64,000 nucleotides of DNA from Candidatus Woesearchaeota archaeon. GTDB taxonomy: Archaea > Nanobdellota > Nanobdellia > Pacearchaeales > GW2011-AR1. The stretch spans positions 2,003 through 66,002 of the forward strand of contig CAYOFN010000001.1 in NCBI GenBank assembly GCA_964403535.1. The letters run 5' to 3'. This document shows positions 3,721 through 20,297 of this stretch, one piece after another (the first letter of the stretch is position 1; each line of letters begins with the position of its first letter). The translations under genes and the position numbers were made by a program. The notes below the pieces were generated by a model that was given only the letters and a program-made list of their open reading frames with translations, was not told where the DNA came from and ran no database searches.

Positions 3721-4029
3721 CTACTTAAACTTAGAAATCTTTTCATAAAGAACTTCTTCAGCAACTTGTCCTACAATCCTCTCTACTTCTTTTCCATCTT
3801 TGAAAATAACTATACACGGAATGGACATTATGCTGTACTTTTCAGCTAATTCAGGGTCATCATCAATATTAATCTTACCAAAGTTTATTTCAGAAAATTT
3901 CTCAGCCATCTCATCAAAAACAGGAGCCATCATCAAACAAGGCATGCACCACTCTGCAAAAAAGTCAATTACAGCAGTTCCACTCTTAATAAACTCTTCA
4001 AACTCTCCATTAGTGAGTTCTTTTACCAT
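3721..4029 (-). CDS. trxA: thioredoxin
   Basis: 102 aa with the WCMPC active-site motif in thioredoxin-fold context (FFAEWCMPC...VPT-like). Confidence 0.85.
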   Translation of the reverse strand: MVKELTNGEFEEFIKSGTAVIDFFAEWCMPCLMMAPVFDEMAEKFSEINFGKINIDDDPELAEKYSIMSIPCIVIFKDGKEVERIVGQVAEEVLYEKISKFK

Positions 4030-4193: not shown

Positions 4194-4625
4194 CTACTTA
4201 ACGCCACTAGAAGTAAATCTCCCCTCTCCTCTCTCTGTATCACTCAACTCTTCAGATTCCTCAATTACTGCTTCTGAAACAGGCTGAATAACCAATTGTG
4301 CAATCCGATCTCCTTTCTCAATCTTAAAATTATCTTCAGATAAATTCTTTAAAACAATCATCAATTCTCCTCTATAATTTGAGTCTAATACTCCTGCCAT
4401 TGTATGTATCCCGTGTTTTGCAGCCATTCCTCCTCTGTCCCAAACCAATCCAACCTGTCCCTCAGGCAATTCAATAGCAATCCCACTTTTTACAACTCTT
4501 TTCTCCCCTGCTTTTAAGACAAGAGTCTCAGCAGAACGTATATCAAGTGCAGCATCTCCCTCTCTTGAGTACTTAGGAAGTTCAATCTCCTTATCAATTC
4601 TTTTTATTTTTATGTTTATTTTCAT
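4194..4625 (-). CDS. dut: dUTP diphosphatase (dUTPase / dCTP deaminase superfamily)
   Basis: 143 aa with dUTPase motifs (DIRSAE, VKSGIAIELPEG, GVLDSNYRGEL, C-terminal Gly-rich RFTSSG). Its stop overlaps the nrdG start. Confidence 0.65.
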   Translation of the reverse strand: MKINIKIKRIDKEIELPKYSREGDAALDIRSAETLVLKAGEKRVVKSGIAIELPEGQVGLVWDRGGMAAKHGIHTMAGVLDSNYRGELMIVLKNLSEDNFKIEKGDRIAQLVIQPVSEAVIEESEELSDTERGEGRFTSSGVK

Positions 4626-5392
4626 TATCTTATTTCACATCTGGGAAAATAGGTTTTTATTACTTTCTGAAATCTCTCTAAAACTTCTTTAGGGGTCTGG
4701 TGCATTTCAAAAGGCAGATTTTCTTTATTAAACTTACTCGAGAGTATCTCTCCTCCCTCTCTTGAAACAAATCCCTGTATTATCCATAAACTTTTCTTAT
4801 TTTCACAAATATCAAAAACCCACTTTGCCATTTCTTCAATCTCTTCATTAAACATCCATCTTGCTTTTTTTCCATCAATAACAGGAACAACTGTTGTCCT
4901 AAACTCATACTTTTCAGAGTCTAGTTTGCTTAGAAGTTCGATACTCTCTTCAAGTTTTTTCAAATCAATACTTACTCCTGTGACTTCTTCATACAAAGAA
5001 GGAGAAGTTTTAATGTCCATAGCAACATAATCCACAAGGTTTTCCTCAACAATTTTCTTAAGCATTTGAGGATTAGAACCATTTGTATCAACTTTTACAC
5101 TTAATCCCATTTGTTTTAATTTTTTAAGAAGAATTGGAAGATCCTTCTGAAGTGTAGGCTCTCCCCCAGTAACACAAACCCCATTATACCATCCAGAATT
5201 AACTTTTCTTTTTATCTCCTTAAATTTTTCTTCTATGTCCTCATTTTTCCCAGGTTCATTTGTTTTTACTAATTCAGGATTATGACAAAAACCGCATCTA
5301 AAATTACATCCAGAAACAAAAATCACCGGCCCAAACTTTTTTCTATAATCAATACTGCTTTCAGAAATTATTTGTTTAATAATCATAATCAT
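4625..5392 (-). CDS. nrdG: anaerobic ribonucleotide reductase activating protein (radical SAM)
   Basis: Radical-SAM cysteine motif VSGCNFRCGFCHNPE. It lies immediately downstream of, and overlaps, nrdD. Confidence 0.8.
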   Translation of the reverse strand: MIMIIKQIISESSIDYRKKFGPVIFVSGCNFRCGFCHNPELVKTNEPGKNEDIEEKFKEIKRKVNSGWYNGVCVTGGEPTLQKDLPILLKKLKQMGLSVKVDTNGSNPQMLKKIVEENLVDYVAMDIKTSPSLYEEVTGVSIDLKKLEESIELLSKLDSEKYEFRTTVVPVIDGKKARWMFNEEIEEMAKWVFDICENKKSLWIIQGFVSREGGEILSSKFNKENLPFEMHQTPKEVLERFQKVIKTYFPRCEIR

Positions 5393-8300
5393 CCAGTCTG
5401 TTTTTAATTTCTATTTCTATTTCCTGAGGAGTAATCATCTCATCTTTTCCTGAAAGACTCTTAACTCCACAAACCCCTGCACTGCAATTAGAACTATAAA
5501 TCGTAGTTTTTCTCCAGTAACCCCTCTTGCCTGCAATTACTAAACTTGGAACACTATCAAGGGGCACACCATAAAAAGCAGCTTCAGCAAGGGCTTTTTC
5601 ATCTTTTGAATCAAGGTAATCTATTTTAAAATCAATCTTCATACTCAGATTTAAATCCTTTATCTTTCTCTCTATTTGTTCTTTTAAAATCTTGCAATTA
5701 GGACAGTCCTTTTTTCCAAATTCAATTAATATTAAACTCCCATTACCATTAGGATTATGCAACCAAGAAAGGTCTTTTCCAGCATAAAAATCCTCAGTCT
5801 TTTTTCTGTCTTCATAAATTCTTTTTTGAGAATTATTCCAGTGGGAGATTCTACTGTAATACCCTACAACTCTTGTAACATAAAACAAGGTATTTTTATC
5901 AAGAGTCTTTGGAGAACTATTTAAGCAATTTGGAGTAGTGCATAACTCCTTCTCTCCAGCCATAACCCCCCCACAAGCTTCACATTCAGTATAAGTAGGA
6001 GAAAAAACAAGCTGAGAACAAAGAGTATTCTCAAAAGTTTGTTTAATAAGATGTTTTATAGACTCTTTATCAGGTCTTTTCTCTCCAAGATATGCGTGGA
6101 TTATTGCTCCAGATTCAATCATCTCATGGAATTTGCTCTGTCCAATAATCCTATCAACAATTCCAACATTAGCATCAGGAGCAAAATGTATAGAGTTAGT
6201 GTAGTATGGGTCTTTTTCACTTCCTTTGATGACTTCTCTTGCTTTTTCAAAATATTTCCAGTCAACTTTAGCTAATCTTCTTGTTGCAGATTCTGCAGGA
6301 GTTTCTTCAATTGTAAATTTTAATCCAGTTCTCTCTTTAAATTCTTTAATTTTAATATACATATGAGCAATAATTTCAAGTCCAAGTTTGTATGCATCTT
6401 CACCTTCATGCAATTGCCTTCCACATAATGCCTGAACAGCTTCATTTAATCCAATACATCCGATAATATATGTTGCCTTTTTCAAGTCAATATAAGGTGT
6501 CCCATCATCACTTGGTTTTCCTAAATTTCTCATAGGCGAGCCATCTGTCTCTAATAGCTGAGTCATAAATTCAGCTTTTTGTTTATGTGCTTTTAATGCA
6601 AGCTCCATTGATTCATCAATCTCTCTAAATATACCCTCTTTTGTCTTTCCTTTATAACTTGCCTGAGCAAGATTAATAGTGACATTTTGAAACCCGCAGA
6701 ATCTTAACTTCTCAGGATATTTTAACATGGTTATATCTGTGATCTTTTCTTTTAATCTGCAACACTGAGCAAGAACAGCGTCATCTCCCCTGTCAAACAT
6801 GAAATACACTGATCCATTTTCAGATGCAACTTTAGAAGCAAAATCAAAAAGCTCAAATTGAACAGGATCCTTAAAAGTATTCTTGTCTATATGTAAATCG
6901 CATTTTGGAAAATGAAATGGTCTTCCATGTTTGTCTCCTCTTCTCCATATCTCAAGAAGGCTCTTTGCAAATTTCTGTGCAGTTCTTTCCAAGTCTCCAT
7001 AGGTTATTATTTTTCCCTTATCTAATTTAGAACTGTCTGCATCTCCATTTCTAGAGTCTTCTTTATCTTTTTCATTAAAAAATCTTGGAACCTCATGAAC
7101 TAATTCAACACTCTCATCAGGCATTTTAATCATATACATTCCTTTAGGCCCTATTGCAGGAACATTTTTCATATAATCTGGAACTCCAACATGAACATTA
7201 AAATCAATAAAAAGAGTCTGTCCTCCTCTTGAAAATGCATTTTGAGAAGCAGCAAATATTAAATTTTGGGCAACTTGTTCCATTTCTTTTTCTGAAACCT
7301 CTTTTAATTTCTTTTTTTTGTAAAGAACCTTAACTTCTTCAGGATTTATTGTTCCTTGTTCTACTAACTTCATAAAATCATTTTTTTCAAATTCATAATT
7401 TTTTCCATTCATACTTACTCCTATAGTATCCACAGGACGGTTTAATAGGGAGGAATAAAAGATGTTCAAAAAACCAAACCCCAGTGCACCTGCATAATGC
7501 GCTTGTAAAGAAGCTAAAAAAGTTTGTACATGCTGGCTTAGAACATGCGCTGAGTTTGGAGGATTGGATTTTGATTCAAGATTAGTTAGAACCTGATTTA
7601 ATCCGTATTTTTTAATATACTCAAGAGAGTGAGAAGAACAATAAACTCTTGCAGGATAACCTAAATCATGTATATGTATGGCTCCTTTAAGATGTGCCTC
7701 TGCAACATCAGAACTAAAAATATTTTCAAGAGCAAACTGTTTTTGGAGTCTTTCTGCAATCTCAAGATTTAATGCTTCAGGATTATTACTCGAAACATTA
7801 CTATTCTCAAGACTTTTGCTAAATAAGATCTTAGTAAAATCAGAAGTAGGAATTGCAAGTAAAGCTTGCTTTTTTCTCTGCATTTCCAATCCTTCTTGTT
7901 TTAGTATTAAGTCTACAATCCCACGAATGTCAGTAGTAGAGAATTTTCTTATCCCTCTCTGATACATATCTACAACAATATTCTCCACCATTTTAGATAC
8001 ATCTTTTGCAAGTTCAGGAGAGAGGTCTGCTTCTTCCTGAAGCTGTTCAACAATCTTTTCTCTTTTCCATGTGCCAATTATTTCTTTTGAGTCAGACTCG
8101 ATTAAAAGTGCAGTATCAGTAGAGTCTCCTCCTTCTTGTTTTGTTGCAATTGCTAGAACTTTCCTTGCTTCACCCCTCTTATTTTTATAATGAGTGTATG
8201 CTCTGGAGACATTCTTATATCCAAGCTCATTAGATGAATGAAGAATTGCTCTTTCAACCTCATTAATCTTTAGAACTCGTTTTCCAAACTCTCCATTAAT

Positions 8301-8450
8301 CTGATTCATAACTTTTTCAAAAATTTCTTCAGTAATTTTTTCATAACCTTCTGGGTTTGAAGAACTTGAAGCTTTCAAAATAGCTTTTTTAATTCTTCCA
8401 GAATCAAACCTATCAATCTTCCCACCTCTTTTTTCAATAAATCTTTGCAT
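5376..8450 (-). CDS. nrdD: class III (anaerobic) ribonucleoside-triphosphate reductase with N-terminal ATP-cone and C-terminal glutaredoxin-like domain
   Basis: 1024 aa with an N-terminal ATP-cone (MQRFIEKRGGKIDRFDSGRIKKAILKA), a Zn-ribbon (CEACG...CTTPNC) and a glycine-radical motif (TRVVGYYSRI). An additional ~125-aa C-terminal thioredoxin-fold segment follows (LILIEFGKKDCPNCK...VPSLVIAGK). Confidence 0.9.
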   Translation of the reverse strand: MQRFIEKRGGKIDRFDSGRIKKAILKASSSSNPEGYEKITEEIFEKVMNQINGEFGKRVLKINEVERAILHSSNELGYKNVSRAYTHYKNKRGEARKVLAIATKQEGGDSTDTALLIESDSKEIIGTWKREKIVEQLQEEADLSPELAKDVSKMVENIVVDMYQRGIRKFSTTDIRGIVDLILKQEGLEMQRKKQALLAIPTSDFTKILFSKSLENSNVSSNNPEALNLEIAERLQKQFALENIFSSDVAEAHLKGAIHIHDLGYPARVYCSSHSLEYIKKYGLNQVLTNLESKSNPPNSAHVLSQHVQTFLASLQAHYAGALGFGFLNIFYSSLLNRPVDTIGVSMNGKNYEFEKNDFMKLVEQGTINPEEVKVLYKKKKLKEVSEKEMEQVAQNLIFAASQNAFSRGGQTLFIDFNVHVGVPDYMKNVPAIGPKGMYMIKMPDESVELVHEVPRFFNEKDKEDSRNGDADSSKLDKGKIITYGDLERTAQKFAKSLLEIWRRGDKHGRPFHFPKCDLHIDKNTFKDPVQFELFDFASKVASENGSVYFMFDRGDDAVLAQCCRLKEKITDITMLKYPEKLRFCGFQNVTINLAQASYKGKTKEGIFREIDESMELALKAHKQKAEFMTQLLETDGSPMRNLGKPSDDGTPYIDLKKATYIIGCIGLNEAVQALCGRQLHEGEDAYKLGLEIIAHMYIKIKEFKERTGLKFTIEETPAESATRRLAKVDWKYFEKAREVIKGSEKDPYYTNSIHFAPDANVGIVDRIIGQSKFHEMIESGAIIHAYLGEKRPDKESIKHLIKQTFENTLCSQLVFSPTYTECEACGGVMAGEKELCTTPNCLNSSPKTLDKNTLFYVTRVVGYYSRISHWNNSQKRIYEDRKKTEDFYAGKDLSWLHNPNGNGSLILIEFGKKDCPNCKILKEQIERKIKDLNLSMKIDFKIDYLDSKDEKALAEAAFYGVPLDSVPSLVIAGKRGYWRKTTIYSSNCSAGVCGVKSLSGKDEMITPQEIEIEIKNRLDDYDY

Positions 8451-8451
8451 T

Positions 8452-8889
8452 TTATAGTATCTCCTTTATTTCTTTTTTAAAGTCTGTTAAATCTTTAAAA
8501 TCCCGGTATACTGAAGCAAACCTTATGTATGCTACCTGGTCAAGTTTTTTAAGCTTTTTTATTACCAACTCCCCAATTAAGCTACTTCTTACTTCATGTC
8601 CGTATTGTCTTAATCTTTCTTCTATATTATTTACTATCCACTCAATCTTCTCCTTTGAAACTGGCCTCTTTTCACAGGATTTATCTATACCTTGTTTTAA
8701 TTTTTCTCTTGAAAAAGGTTCTCTTCTCCCATCTTTTTTTATTACAAAAATTTCCAGAGGCTCTAATCTTTCATAAGTTGTAAATCTTTTCCCACATTTC
8801 AAACACTCTCTTCTTCTTCTTGTCTCATTCTTTGTATCTCTTTTGTCAGTAACCTTTGTATCTTCATTCGAACAGTATGGGCAGAGCAT
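8452..8889 (-). CDS. nrdR: NrdR-like transcriptional repressor (zinc ribbon plus ATP-cone)
   Basis: 145 aa starting MLCPYCSNEDTKVTDKRDTKNETRRRRECLKCGKRFTTYE, the NrdR Zn-ribbon signature, followed by an ATP-cone. It lies directly upstream of nrdD. Confidence 0.8.
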   Translation of the reverse strand: MLCPYCSNEDTKVTDKRDTKNETRRRRECLKCGKRFTTYERLEPLEIFVIKKDGRREPFSREKLKQGIDKSCEKRPVSKEKIEWIVNNIEERLRQYGHEVRSSLIGELVIKKLKKLDQVAYIRFASVYRDFKDLTDFKKEIKEIL

Positions 8890-9041
8890 TTTTGTTTTAG
8901 TCTTTTCCTCTTTTATTTCTTTGCTTGTTTATTTGCTATGATTTGAAACGAAAGTGCGAACCAGAGCATTTTTGTTTTAGTCTTTTCCTCTTTTATTTCT
9001 TTGCTTGTTTATTTGCTATGATTTGAAACGAAAGTGCGAAC
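8882..9041. repeat. 80-bp perfect tandem direct duplication (2 copies) covering the nrdR start codon and 5' region
   Basis: The unit cagagcatttttgttttagtcttttcctcttttatttctttgcttgtttatttgctatgatttgaaacgaaagtgcgaac occurs at 8882-8961 and again at 8962-9041 with no mismatches. Confidence 0.9.
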
Positions 9042-9220
9042 AAGCCTCTCTTTTGTTATTTTTAAGTTACTACAAGATATGGTAGGTAATCACTCTTAAA
9101 CCACAACATCTTGTAGGTTGTAAGAGAATCAAATCAAATCTCTTTTTAAACTTTTCTATGCTCTAGAATACATCTTTAAAAAACAATAAGGTTTTAAAAC
9201 AATCTTTCCTTTTTTTTAGT

Positions 9221-19023: not shown

Positions 19024-19392
19024 TTAGGAATAAAATTCTTTCTCACTCACCCTGACTGTCTGATTTGGGAAATTCCTGGCTAGATAATCTTCTTCAGATA
19101 CTACTGCTCCAAATAAAGGATCCCAAACTGTTCCCCCACCTATACAAATCCAGTGATGCCAGAATTCTGCTTCAGGAATCATCGGATATAGCTTGGCTCC
19201 ATCTCCAGAAATAAGTTTTTTTAATTCTACTATCCAACTAGGATGTGTTCTTTTAATAATTGAAGCCATTCTTCTTGCCCGATAATAGCAACCATTTTCA
19301 ACTACTTCTGCTTCTAGATTAAGAGTTTTAAATCTTTTAATTATTGCCCGTTCTATCATTTTCTTTCTAAGAATCAGCTCTTTTTCACCCAT
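19024..19392 (-). CDS. hypothetical protein
   Basis: 122 aa; overlaps the trxB 3' end by 19 nt on the same strand. Confidence 0.3.
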   Translation of the reverse strand: MGEKELILRKKMIERAIIKRFKTLNLEAEVVENGCYYRARRMASIIKRTHPSWIVELKKLISGDGAKLYPMIPEAEFWHHWICIGGGTVWDPLFGAVVSEEDYLARNFPNQTVRVSEKEFYS

Positions 19393-20297
19393 GCAGAAGC
19401 AGACTTTGCAGCAACTGCTCCCTGGCTTGCAGCAACAACTACTTGTTTTAAAGAAGAATGAGTAACATCCCCTGCAGCAAAAACTCCGTCTACACTTGTT
19501 TTCATTTCACTATCAACAATTATCTGCCCGTCTTTGTCTAATTCTAGATCTAAGTCTTTAATAAACTCAATCAATGCAATAGCCCCAATCTCAATAAAAA
19601 CTCCGTCTATATTAAATTCTTTTTCCTTTTCATTTTGTCTGACTACTAATCCTTCAACCTTACTCTCTCCTTTTATTCTAAGAGGAACTGCTTCATATAC
19701 AATCTCAACATTTTCTTTTTTTTCAAGCCTTTTGCTTGTAATCTCCTCGCATCTAAGTTTTTTACCCCTGTAAAATACATAGACTTTTTTAGCTAAATCT
19801 GAAAGAGCTAGAGCAGAGATAGCTGCACAGTCACTCCCTCCAACAACGCCAACTGTTTTATTTTTAAAAAAGAAAGCATCACAAGTAACACAGTAACTTA
19901 CTCCCTTACCAGTCAGTTCTTTTTCACCAGGAACATTTAATTTTCTTCTTTTTGTTCCACTTGCGATTATTACACTTTTCGAATAAATTTTTTGTTTTTT
20001 TGTTTCAATACAAAACCCTTCCTTTTCTTTCTTTATTTTTTCAACATCCTGCATAATAAAATCAATTTTATACTCCTTTAATTGCTCATAGAACTTTTTC
20101 ATTAATTCTGCTCCTGTTCCAGAAAATCCTGGCCAATTTTCAAGTAAGAGAATGCTATTAGTAGTTCCGCCAATATCTTTGCTGATTATTACTGTTTTTA
20201 ATCCATCTCTTGCTGCATATAATCCTGCACTCATCCCAGCAGGTCCTGCCCCAATAATCACAACATCATAATTCTTTGTCATTTTTATAAACAGCAT
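19374..20297 (-). CDS. trxB: thioredoxin-disulfide reductase
   Basis: FAD motif VVIIGAGPAGMSAG, redox-active CVTC, and NAD(P)H GxGxxA motif (VGVVGGSDCAA). Confidence 0.85.
   Translation of the reverse strand: MLFIKMTKNYDVVIIGAGPAGMSAGLYAARDGLKTVIISKDIGGTTNSILLLENWPGFSGTGAELMKKFYEQLKEYKIDFIMQDVEKIKKEKEGFCIETKKQKIYSKSVIIASGTKRRKLNVPGEKELTGKGVSYCVTCDAFFFKNKTVGVVGGSDCAAISALALSDLAKKVYVFYRGKKLRCEEITSKRLEKKENVEIVYEAVPLRIKGESKVEGLVVRQNEKEKEFNIDGVFIEIGAIALIEFIKDLDLELDKDGQIIVDSEMKTSVDGVFAAGDVTHSSLKQVVVAASQGAVAAKSASAWVKKS

Follow-up and report, generated by a model that had tools for sequence, protein, structure and literature searches.

The window analysed here, a 64,000-nucleotide stretch of DNA from a Candidatus Woesearchaeota archaeon, carries a nrdD gene (5376–8450) whose reading frame is continuous over 1024 aa, with no stop and no frameshift, and combines an ATP-cone, a class III ribonucleotide reductase (RNR) core, a glycyl-radical domain and a C-terminal thioredoxin-like domain. 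All genes and protein features described below lie on the (−) strand. Immediately upstream of nrdD is nrdR (8452–8889), in which model matches identify a Zn ribbon and an ATP-cone. On the other side follow nrdG (4625–5392), encoding an activase of the NrdG2 type (TIGR02495, 169.6 bits against a cutoff of 131.15) whose start overlaps the 3′ end of nrdD by 17 nt, and a dUTPase gene (4194–4625), the third gene of a nrdD-nrdG-dut order that was conserved in the compared loci and is common to Elusimicrobia and archaea. The window also encodes a canonical thioredoxin with a WCMPC site (3721–4029), a candidate electron donor to the fused domain, and a low-molecular-weight thioredoxin reductase (TrxR)-like flavoprotein with a CVTC motif (19374–20297; TIGR01292, 328.7 bits, below the cutoff of 343.45), which is a candidate ultimate reductase. 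A thioredoxin gene adjoined the nrdD locus only in the window and its closest relative, L005, and was absent in L003, L004 and the Elusimicrobia loci L001 and L002. Two NrdR-box-like 16-mers (9070–9085 and 9101–9116, together 9070–9116, with no strand assigned) stand 31 bp apart upstream of nrdR; they are degenerate and were found by eye, and the strict NrdR-box consensus, with up to 3 mismatches allowed, had no match in the nrdR upstream region. Comparable pairs were present in L005 and L003.

The nrdD product belongs to class III by its matches to NrdD models, its Zn ribbon and RxxGY motif, and the adjacent NrdG. Pfam NRDD (PF13597) matched aa 215–884 with 382 bits (GA 26.2), and NCBIfam TIGR02487 (NrdD) scored 347.2 bits, above its cutoff of 326.35. 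In overall sequence the protein was nearer to the NrdDs of Prevotella copri (E 1e-34) and S. thermophilus (3e-27) than to that of Thermotoga maritima (1e-9), and the full-length model gave target-normalised TM values of 0.65–0.78 against NrdD structures. The N-terminal ATP-cone spans aa 4–93 (8172–8441; Pfam PF03477, 46 bits); this cone and the adjacent NrdR, both named in a preliminary description made from the sequence alone, were recovered by Pfam and NCBIfam models. Direct reading placed the Zn ribbon at C823-x2-C826-x10-C837-x4-C842 (5925–5984); the first three cysteines were invariant in the family alignment and C842 was a cysteine in 54 of 72 sequences. The glycyl-radical motif RVVGYY (aa 860–865, 5856–5873) contains G863, also invariant, and is followed by the canonical NrdD C-terminal tail helix (aa 866–892, 5775–5855), in which W871, N872, R882 and Y889 are invariant and at which unfused NrdDs end.

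Beyond RVVGYY the protein continues for 159 residues. Because NrdD ends 29 aa after the radical Gly in split-gene relatives and 32 aa after it in P. copri (G711 of 743), we place the extra segment at approximately aa 893–1024 (∼130 aa), in agreement with the 5379–5790 (aa 888–1024) of the preliminary description. That description was also right that the ORF runs past the normal NrdD end, although its figure of ∼20 aa for that end was slightly short and ∼30 is closer. The segment consists of a linker (aa 893–905, 5736–5774), absent in split-gene forms, and a thioredoxin-fold domain (aa 906–1019, 5394–5735) identified from AlphaFold2 (AF2), Foldseek, profile comparison with the PDB and Pfam matches to relatives. 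The redox motif C916-P-N-C919 (5694–5705), with both cysteines invariant, sits at the N-terminus of helix α1, and the cis-proline position, P968 (5547–5549), lies directly before β3. AF2 predicted a four-stranded domain of topology β1 α1 β2 α2 β3 β4 [loop] α3 (strands 906–912, 939–945, 969–973 and 978–982; helices 917–932, 951–959 and 1008–1019), with a model pLDDT of 86.7 and values >90 in the domain core. All of the top 50 Foldseek matches in the PDB were thioredoxins or thioredoxin-fold proteins, at a probability of 1.00 for thioredoxins, and a family profile matched essentially only thioredoxin-fold chains there (best E 1.4e-5). The window protein alone scored below the Pfam gathering threshold for every thioredoxin-family model (Thioredoxin_2, 22.5 bits against GA 27, E 1.5e-4), and 27 of 50 family members matched Thioredoxin_2 at E<0.01 (best 2.2e-8) and 21 of 50 matched Glrx-like. 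The proposed fusion of NrdD to a C-terminal thioredoxin-like CPNC domain was thus borne out by profile, by Pfam on relatives, by AF2 and by Foldseek, and the motifs quoted for it were all found (LILIEFGKK at aa 906–914, CPNC at 916–919, VPSLVIAG at 967–974); of the Pfam matches expected, NRDD and ATP-cone were obtained outright, and the redoxin match was sub-threshold in the window protein and present in the relatives.

Which kind of redoxin this is can be narrowed. Canonical thioredoxins have a five-stranded sheet with an extra N-terminal β-α unit and a WCGPC-type site; here four strands were predicted, PF00085 gave only E 0.078 (13.4 bits), and TIGR01068 did not match. Nor is the domain a duplicate of the neighbouring thioredoxin, as BLASTP found no similarity between the two. 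Assignment to glutaredoxin or NrdH also failed: PF00462 did not match the window protein even at E≤10 (15 of 50 relatives had weak matches), the NCBIfam NrdH, YruB and Grx models did not match the fused domain at E≤0.01, and direct reading of the domain showed none of the NrdH signature motifs. No curated NCBIfam redoxin family was matched by it. NrdH, which is encoded in operons with class Ib RNR and reduced by thioredoxin reductase (PMC6187632), nevertheless resembles the domain in being a small thioredoxin fold that is like glutaredoxins in size and topology and serves a single RNR; the differences are the missing NCBIfam or Pfam NrdH-type match, the absent sequence hallmarks and the other RNR class. 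As judged from the curated models and the predicted structure, the extension is a thioredoxin-fold CxxC domain that is neither canonical thioredoxin, glutaredoxin nor NrdH.

The preliminary description had raised the worry that nrdD and a downstream redoxin gene were joined artificially, by a frameshift or assembly error, and two other contigs, L007 and L010, do carry split versions. This worry is refuted by the family data, because the fused architecture was found in every one of the 114 relatives whose C-terminus is complete (45–70% identical), drawn from independent NCBI, JGI, ENA and Logan assemblies and belonging to Pacearchaeota/Nanoarchaeia and Elusimicrobia. Besides the continuous frame in the window, a linker of ∼13 aa is kept across the fused relatives, whereas the split versions lack it and have the redoxin in a different frame from nrdD; an artefact has a negligible chance of being the explanation. 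C916, C919 and P968 were invariant in 72 aligned sequences down to 45% identity, and the two residues between the cysteines were highly variable, with 46 different pairs in the family. We conclude that the C-terminal redoxin on NrdD is real and conserved. A C-terminal redoxin::NrdD fusion appears to be without description in the literature searched.

The family was recovered with the full-length query. When only the 159-aa extension was used as query, a word-index search gave no match at E≤1e-3, which reflects a limit of sensitivity; one with profile A2 returned seven short fragments only, and a single-protein scan of GTDB genomes found only two Pacearchaeota loci and two unfused bacterial NrdDs. 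Several long matches to the extension profile were set aside as not being NrdD: proteins with repeated CxxC redoxin-type modules (P0143–P0145, P0181, P0206, P0210 and P0222), a multi-glutaredoxin reductase fusion (P0149) and an unrelated Cys-rich repeat protein (P0227).

The redoxin domain of the window protein has a second pair of cysteines, C989-S-A-G-V-C994 (CX4C; 5469–5486), in a β4-α3 loop that is predicted to be disordered (AF2 pLDDT <50 for aa 989–1000). The family loop sequences (CESGVCSIG, CENGACSI, CEDGVCHVG) recall the CESGACKI of the E. coli NrdA C-terminal dithiol (DDGCESGACKI), likewise a CX4C on a flexible segment near the C-terminal end of a catalytic subunit. In class I and II RNRs such a C-terminal Cys pair relays electrons from a redoxin to the active site (PMC5704485). 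The pair described here differs in lying in a loop inside the redoxin domain and not at the extreme C-terminus, and in being confined to about half of the family: a C-x(2-6)-C was present in this loop in 56 of 114 tails and missing from 58, including nearly all of the Elusimicrobia group, with CxxC and cis-Pro invariant regardless. Extending over 6–8 residues, the likeness to NrdA may reflect convergence or coincidence. In thioredoxin folds the β4-α3 loop lies next to the CxxC site. C916, C919, C989 and C994 are close together in the folded window protein, and one could suppose that they form a four-Cys Zn or Fe-S site, or that the domain only stabilises or oligomerises the enzyme. The predicted disorder of the loop, and the loss of CX4C from those 58 tails while CxxC and cis-Pro stay invariant, make such a metal or structural module very unlikely.

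What reductant the enzyme needs is suggested by its active site. The βA-strand cysteine, C271 in RVYCSSHS (7638–7640), was invariant in 72 of 72 sequences and corresponds to the Tyr124-Cys125 pair of T. maritima (PMC4493059), with Y270-C271 invariant and aligned with Y124-C125. The finger loop reads Q562-C563-C564-R565 (6756–6767), a double Cys without Met, also invariant in 72 of 72. E715, equally invariant, is part of E715-E716 in IEETPAES (6303–6308) and would be the counterpart of T. maritima Glu495, because the profile-to-4coi alignment pairs FNIEQVPAE with IEETPAES; formate-type structures have Leu or Tyr at this position in the profile alignment. Glu495 is the proposed proton donor of formate-independent NrdDs, and the pattern as a whole marks NrdDs “likely to solely utilize thioredoxin” (PMC9669993, from which the finger-loop motif classes were taken). 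The βA Cys, the Met-less xCCR and the Glu were found in every fused lineage, that is, in the 72 aligned sequences and in P0128, P0133, P0135 and P0173.

With these residues the protein has three sequence features of NrdD2 (as defined in PMC9669993, PMC4493059 and PMC4390871), namely the Met-less double-Cys loop, the Glu495 equivalent and the βA Cys, here preceded by Tyr as in the enzymes of Neisseria bacilliformis and T. maritima; as for those, a protein dithiol rather than formate would be expected as reductant. The characterised NrdD2 enzymes differ in ending ∼30 aa after the Gly and using free thioredoxin, where the window protein has a redoxin in the polypeptide, in having SCCR where it has QCCR, and in lacking its ATP-cone and large insertions. 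QCCR has been reported for NrdD3, whose reductant system differs; assignment to this Methanosarcina barkeri type was rejected since NrdD3, with its QCCR/A finger loop, lacks both Met and the active-site Glu (PMC9669993), and here Met is absent and the Glu (E715) is present and invariant. Compared by description, NrdD3 is otherwise similar in its QCCR and in having a small Grx/NrdH-like redoxin that is devoted to a class III RNR and encoded with it. Its system also includes a ferredoxin:disulfide reductase; no ORF in any frame of the 64-kb window, a part of the genome, had the FTR/FDR-like CPC...C[PH]C motif. The enzyme probably runs on protein thiols instead of formate, as the preliminary description had proposed; it had cited the neighbouring thioredoxin and the TrxR-like gene, which are both present and consistent with thiol-dependence, and the invariant C271, the Met-less QCCR and E715 now lend the proposal support.

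Homologs of the fused domain also occur as separate genes. In two metagenome contigs, L007 and L010, nrdD stops at its canonical end and is directly followed by a redoxin homolog of 115 and 98 aa, respectively (family profile E 1.8e-16 and 4.4e-9); in L007 the gene order is nrdD, redoxin, then nrdG. These split forms, which resemble the M. barkeri-type operon (again by description), would provide Rosetta-stone support for a redoxin that serves NrdD. In L011–L013 a free-standing redoxin lies immediately upstream of nrdG and overlaps it, with no nrdD adjacent, an arrangement that would fit an activation-related role equally well. The redoxin might then keep the cysteines of the Zn ribbon and glycyl-radical domain reduced for NrdG, as thioredoxin has been reported to do for E. 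coli NrdD, and supply no electrons for turnover. This proposal agrees with the position of the domain, which comes right behind the Zn ribbon and the glycyl-radical domain, and with the overlap of the nrdG start with the end of the fused gene. However, such a need should hold for every NrdD type, whereas all fused lineages seen have the Met-less double Cys and the Glu, and in L007 and L010 the redoxin gene directly follows nrdD; we consider a purely activating role unlikely.

We think it reasonably likely that the last ∼130 residues serve as a dedicated dithiol reductant, tethered to the enzyme, for the disulfide in its active site. This role is favoured by the fold with its invariant CxxC and cis-Pro, by the thiol-type active site, by the separate-gene versions and by the thioredoxin and TrxR-like genes in the window; electron donation for turnover, the electron route and the upstream reductase are the parts that we infer. 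There is precedent in NrdD2, which uses thioredoxin (PMC9176816), and in the Grx::ATP-cone::NrdB of Facklamia ignava, in which an RNR component carries a covalently attached redoxin together with an ATP-cone; its fused Grx was shown to be a functional, physiological dithiol reductant, GSH-dependent and in class I (PMC6187632). A grx::nrdD has been reported once, in the single genome of Lachnospiraceae bacterium TWA4 (PMC6187632). Those fusions carry an N-terminal canonical Grx that passes Pfam PF00462, whereas the domain described here is C-terminal, behind the glycyl-radical domain, and non-canonical, and its fusion marks out entire clades among DPANN archaea and Elusimicrobia.

A different view is that the CxxC, with or without CX4C, acts as a redox sensor or protective switch that gates activity or shields the O2-sensitive glycyl radical and is not a stoichiometric reductant. 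A redoxin tuned to one redox potential would not usually show such a spread of CxxC dipeptides, the loop cysteines can be absent, and the enzyme is already heavily regulated (ATP-cone, a second cone-like unit and NrdR). Yet RNRs offer no precedent for such a switch, the residues of the active site require an external dithiol in any case, and the separate-gene versions behave like ordinary operon-encoded redoxins, so that we regard it as quite improbable.

If the tethered domain is the reductant, the glycyl radical on G863, installed by NrdG, would generate a thiyl radical on the QCCR finger loop, and ribonucleotide reduction would oxidise C271 and one finger-loop Cys to a disulfide, with E715 as proton donor. 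This disulfide step would be chemistry of the NrdD2 type, with no need for formate. The C916/C919 dithiol would then re-reduce the active-site disulfide of its own subunit or of the dimer partner; for about half of the family, the window protein among them, the relay may pass through the flexible C989/C994 loop. Recharging of the oxidised CxxC would fall to the cellular thioredoxin reductase, acting directly or via free thioredoxin. In a bolder version, which we hold to be rather doubtful, the extension would be a self-contained two-stage relay of CxxC and a CX4C swinging arm, convergent with the class I/II shuttle and charged directly by thioredoxin reductase, so that the enzyme could do without both formate and free thioredoxin; fused and split forms together would make up an unnamed family of NrdD/NrdG-dedicated redoxins, with cassette transfer between DPANN archaea and Elusimicrobia.

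These observations bear on the re-reduction of the buried disulfide in the active site of thiol-dependent class III RNRs. These enzymes have no C-terminal shuttle tail because they end in the glycyl-radical domain, which plugs into the barrel, and in the T. maritima structures the double-Cys motif does not lie near the active site (PMC4493059, PMC9669993). A reductant tethered ∼40 residues behind the radical Gly would constrain the redoxin docking site, and with it single-turnover, mutational and cryo-EM studies could be done on a single polypeptide. Should the CX4C loop prove to be a shuttle, this would be a striking convergence between anaerobic and aerobic RNRs. For genome-reduced DPANN archaea, which are assumed to have little formate metabolism, the fusion suggests a route to deoxynucleotide supply.

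The nrdD gene was found to be a single uninterrupted ORF (5376-8450, minus strand) encoding 1024 aa. Its product passes the NCBIfam NrdD equivalog and contains, by Pfam, an ATP-cone (aa 4-93) and an NRDD domain (aa 215-884, 382 bits), and an AlphaFold model of the entire chain (pLDDT 84.9, pTM 0.82) can be superposed on experimental structures of class III ribonucleotide reductases (RNRs). Both the Zn ribbon, formed by C823, C826, C837 and C842, and the glycyl-radical motif (RVVGYY, aa 860-865) lie where the preliminary description had placed them. From G863, 161 residues remain to the C-terminus, versus ∼30 in unfused NrdDs (in Prevotella copri NrdD the radical glycine is G711 of 743) and 29 in two relatives with split genes. 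The protein thus has ∼130 extra residues (aa ∼893-1024, nt ∼5379-5774), a segment whose coordinates had been given accurately. At the other end of the protein, the full-length model contains a second strand-plus-helices unit after the ATP-cone (aa 124-195; 7866-8081), which looks like a degenerate second ATP-cone; Pfam detected only the first cone.

The preliminary description had named a frameshift or mis-assembly joining nrdD to a separate redoxin gene as one finding that would overturn the fusion. We examined the best 120 matches of a full-length search of NCBI, JGI, ENA and Logan assemblies (45-100% identical). They form two groups, one of Elusimicrobia and one of DPANN archaea, whose named members are Pacearchaeota or Nanoarchaeia. 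Six of these were truncated fragments; all 114 with complete C-termini carried the extension, with its FGK..CxxC motif and cis-Pro strand. When 1.84 billion cluster representatives were searched exhaustively with HMMER, four further and more divergent NrdD lineages (P0128, P0133, P0135 and P0173) proved to have this architecture too. An artificial join is ruled out by these independent assemblies, leaving an artefact with next to no credibility, and we conclude that the fusion is genuine.

The extension had been read as a thioredoxin-fold domain. Alone, the window sequence scored 22.5 bits against Pfam Thioredoxin_2 (gathering score 27) and matched none of the curated NCBIfam redoxin families, so the profile check proposed earlier required more than a single Pfam scan. 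When 50 relatives were scanned, Thioredoxin_2 was matched by 27 (best 2e-8), Glrx-like by 21 and Glutaredoxin by 15, and a profile built from 50 extensions matched, among PDB chains, almost nothing but Trx folds (best 1.4e-5), including DsbA, Pyrococcus furiosus PDO, Mj0307, MtH895 and glutaredoxins. The AlphaFold model of the extension (core pLDDT >90) consists of β1 906-912, α1 917-932, β2 939-945, α2 951-959, β3 969-973, β4 978-982 and α3 1008-1019, and the top 50 Foldseek matches to this model in the PDB were all thioredoxins or Trx-fold proteins, each with probability 1.00. In the model, the CPNC motif (C916-C919) is found at the N-terminal end of α1 and P968 immediately ahead of β3, as is canonical for the redox CxxC and the cis-proline, respectively. 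Profiles and models thus agree with the earlier reading, and we conclude that the extra segment is a predicted thioredoxin-fold redox domain. In size and in its four-strand, three-helix layout it resembles glutaredoxin and NrdH, whereas thioredoxin proper has five strands; no sequence similarity was found between the extension and the true thioredoxin encoded 1.3 kb away.

In a 72-member alignment of the fused family, the invariant residues included C916, C919 and P968 in the extension and C271, Q562-C563-C564-R565, E715, E716, E720, three of the Zn-ribbon cysteines and G863 in the core. Because the CxxC cysteines are invariant while 46 different combinations of the middle pair occur across the family tails, selection acts on the dithiol itself. 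A metal-binding or structural role for the extension appears very improbable.

Three features have been used in the literature to classify class III RNRs (PMC9669993). In formate-using NrdDs the finger loop, MGCR, has one cysteine, and the active site lacks a Glu; the enzymes of Neisseria bacilliformis and Thermotoga maritima, ‘likely to solely utilize thioredoxin’, carry two cysteines but no Met in the loop and have a Glu at T. maritima position 495; and NrdD3 has a QCCR/A loop with neither Met nor Glu (PMC9669993). The fused family has an invariant, Met-less QCCR loop and an invariant Tyr-Cys on βA, the counterpart of which in T. maritima NrdD is Y124-C125 (PMC4493059). Since profile-to-structure alignment paired T. 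maritima FNIEQVPAE with family IEETPAES, E715 corresponds to Glu495; in the structures of formate-type enzymes (P. copri, T4, S. thermophilus) this position is occupied by Leu or Tyr. The Glu is likewise present, together with xCCRL, in all four divergent fused lineages. Judged from these residues, the active-site pattern of the fused family is NrdD2-like, although QCCR, as an exact tetrapeptide, has been described for NrdD3. In overall sequence the P. copri enzyme is nearer than that of T. maritima. The Met-less QCCR, the βA Cys and the Glu thus point, independently of the extension, to the thiol-dependent type that had been proposed. On the strand after the finger loop, the position of C585 (6696-6698) varies: of the 72 members, 35 have Cys there, 29 Thr and 8 Val.

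About half of the family tails (56 of 114) contain a second cysteine pair, C-x(2-6)-C and mostly CX4C, in the β4-α3 loop, which in thioredoxin folds flanks the CxxC site. Fifty-five of these are DPANN members; the lone Elusimicrobia-group match (P0086, CADNRNAC) sits in a non-homologous C-terminal tail. The window pair is C989-SAGV-C994, within a loop predicted by AlphaFold to be disordered (pLDDT <50 for aa 989-1000). Typical family loops (CESGVCSIG, CENGACSI, CEDGVCHVG) resemble, over a short stretch, the C-terminus of E. coli class Ia NrdA (...DDGCESGACKI), whose C754/C759 shuttle dithiol carries redoxin electrons to the active site (PMC5704485). The likeness may be convergent or due to chance. 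The loop is dispensable for the family; in members that have it, the NrdA analogy suggests a possible electron relay from CxxC through CX4C to the active site.

The extension profile also matched stand-alone proteins, 86-115 aa long, that share the signatures of the fused domain. In metagenome contig L007, NrdD ends in ...TRIVGYFSYLNNWHGSKIEELKDRGKAREHYMLV and, one base beyond its stop, in another frame and without the linker, lies a 115-aa homolog (P0129, E 1.8e-16) that overlaps the start of the gene for an activase of NrdG2 type, with dut further along. L010 has the same junction between the nrdD stop and redoxin P0141, and at L009 homolog P0147 adjoins a canonical thioredoxin. At L011-L013, homolog P0148 overlaps the NrdG2 gene start with no nrdD adjacent; upstream of the pair (L011 371-1409) is a membrane-protein gene, and downstream come another radical-SAM gene and an ABC transporter. 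That the redoxin is part of NrdD in most genomes and a separate protein in others, always within an nrdD/nrdG neighbourhood, is classic Rosetta-stone evidence, drawn from gene arrangement, that it would work with this RNR system. One alternative is that the tethered redoxin serves activation or maintenance of the enzyme, a role favoured by the tight redoxin-nrdG coupling in L011 and by the reported activation of E. coli NrdD by thioredoxin (PMC4390871); however, the fusion is associated exclusively with the thiol-type active site, and we regard this role as unlikely.

We consider it reasonably probable that the tethered redoxin re-reduces the NrdD active-site disulfide. The parts and their conservation are observed; the electron path is what we infer. 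After installation of the G863 radical by NrdG, catalysis would begin with a thiyl radical on the finger loop. A disulfide would then form between C271 and a finger-loop Cys, with E715 as proton source. The C916/C919 dithiol would re-reduce it, in cis or across the dimer and possibly via C989/C994, and the TrxR-like flavoprotein (19374-20297; TIGR01292 328.7 bits, slightly below cutoff) would recharge the tethered domain, directly or via free Trx. That the domain is instead a redox sensor seems improbable. The neighbouring thioredoxin gene, earlier cited in favour of thiol dependence, is present, but the argument is weak because among the compared loci only the window and L005, the relative closest to it, have a thioredoxin gene nearby. 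On the strand of the TrxR-like gene, a 122-aa ORF (19024-19392) shares 19 nt with the 3′ end of that gene; the ORF matched nothing in Pfam or NCBIfam and is a possible co-transcribed partner.

The order nrdD-nrdG-dut is common to the Elusimicrobia and DPANN loci, and the fused NrdDs of L001 and L002 (Elusimicrobia) are 45-48% identical to those of the window, L003 and L005 (DPANN); together these suggest that the cassette may have moved between domains by transfer. In the window, nrdG starts (ATG at 5392) 17 nt inside the nrdD 3′ end (5376-5392), an overlap that suggests translational coupling; in L003 and L005 the two genes are 1 nt apart. Among the loci compared, nrdR lies upstream of nrdD only in the archaeal (DPANN) ones. 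NrdR and its operator are usually described as bacterial. Pairs of NrdR-box-like 16-mers, 31-32 bp apart, precede nrdR-nrdD in the window (9070-9085, 9101-9116), L005 (5424-5439, 5456-5471) and L003 (∼5516, ∼5546), and the relatives' boxes, such as ACACAATATATAGTGG in L003, fit the bacterial consensus acaCwAtATaTwGtgt better than the window's. A tandem repeat of two 80-bp copies (8882-8961, 8962-9041) that are 100% identical takes in the nrdR 5′ leader together with the first 8 nt of the nrdR coding region (ATGCTCTG); either the segment was duplicated recently or the assembly is at fault.

Thioredoxin-dependent NrdD2, and NrdD3 with an operon-encoded NrdH-like redoxin, were already known (PMC9176816), and a Grx::NrdB fusion is functional in F. 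ignava (PMC6187632). A RefSeq survey of redoxin-RNR fusions, which demanded above-threshold Pfam Grx matches, listed one grx::nrdD, from Lachnospiraceae bacterium TWA4 (PMC6187632); the fused clade described here probably escaped it because its extension gives no such match. A recent analysis of RNR extensions treats the class III C-terminus as simply the glycyl-radical domain, and our full-text literature search turned up no account of an NrdD with a Trx-like domain at its C-terminus. The principle of a built-in redoxin is thus known, and its position, its RNR class context and the unnamed redoxin family appear to be new. The fused NrdD would overturn nothing; it offers a natural tethered system for how NrdD2-type active sites get re-reduced.
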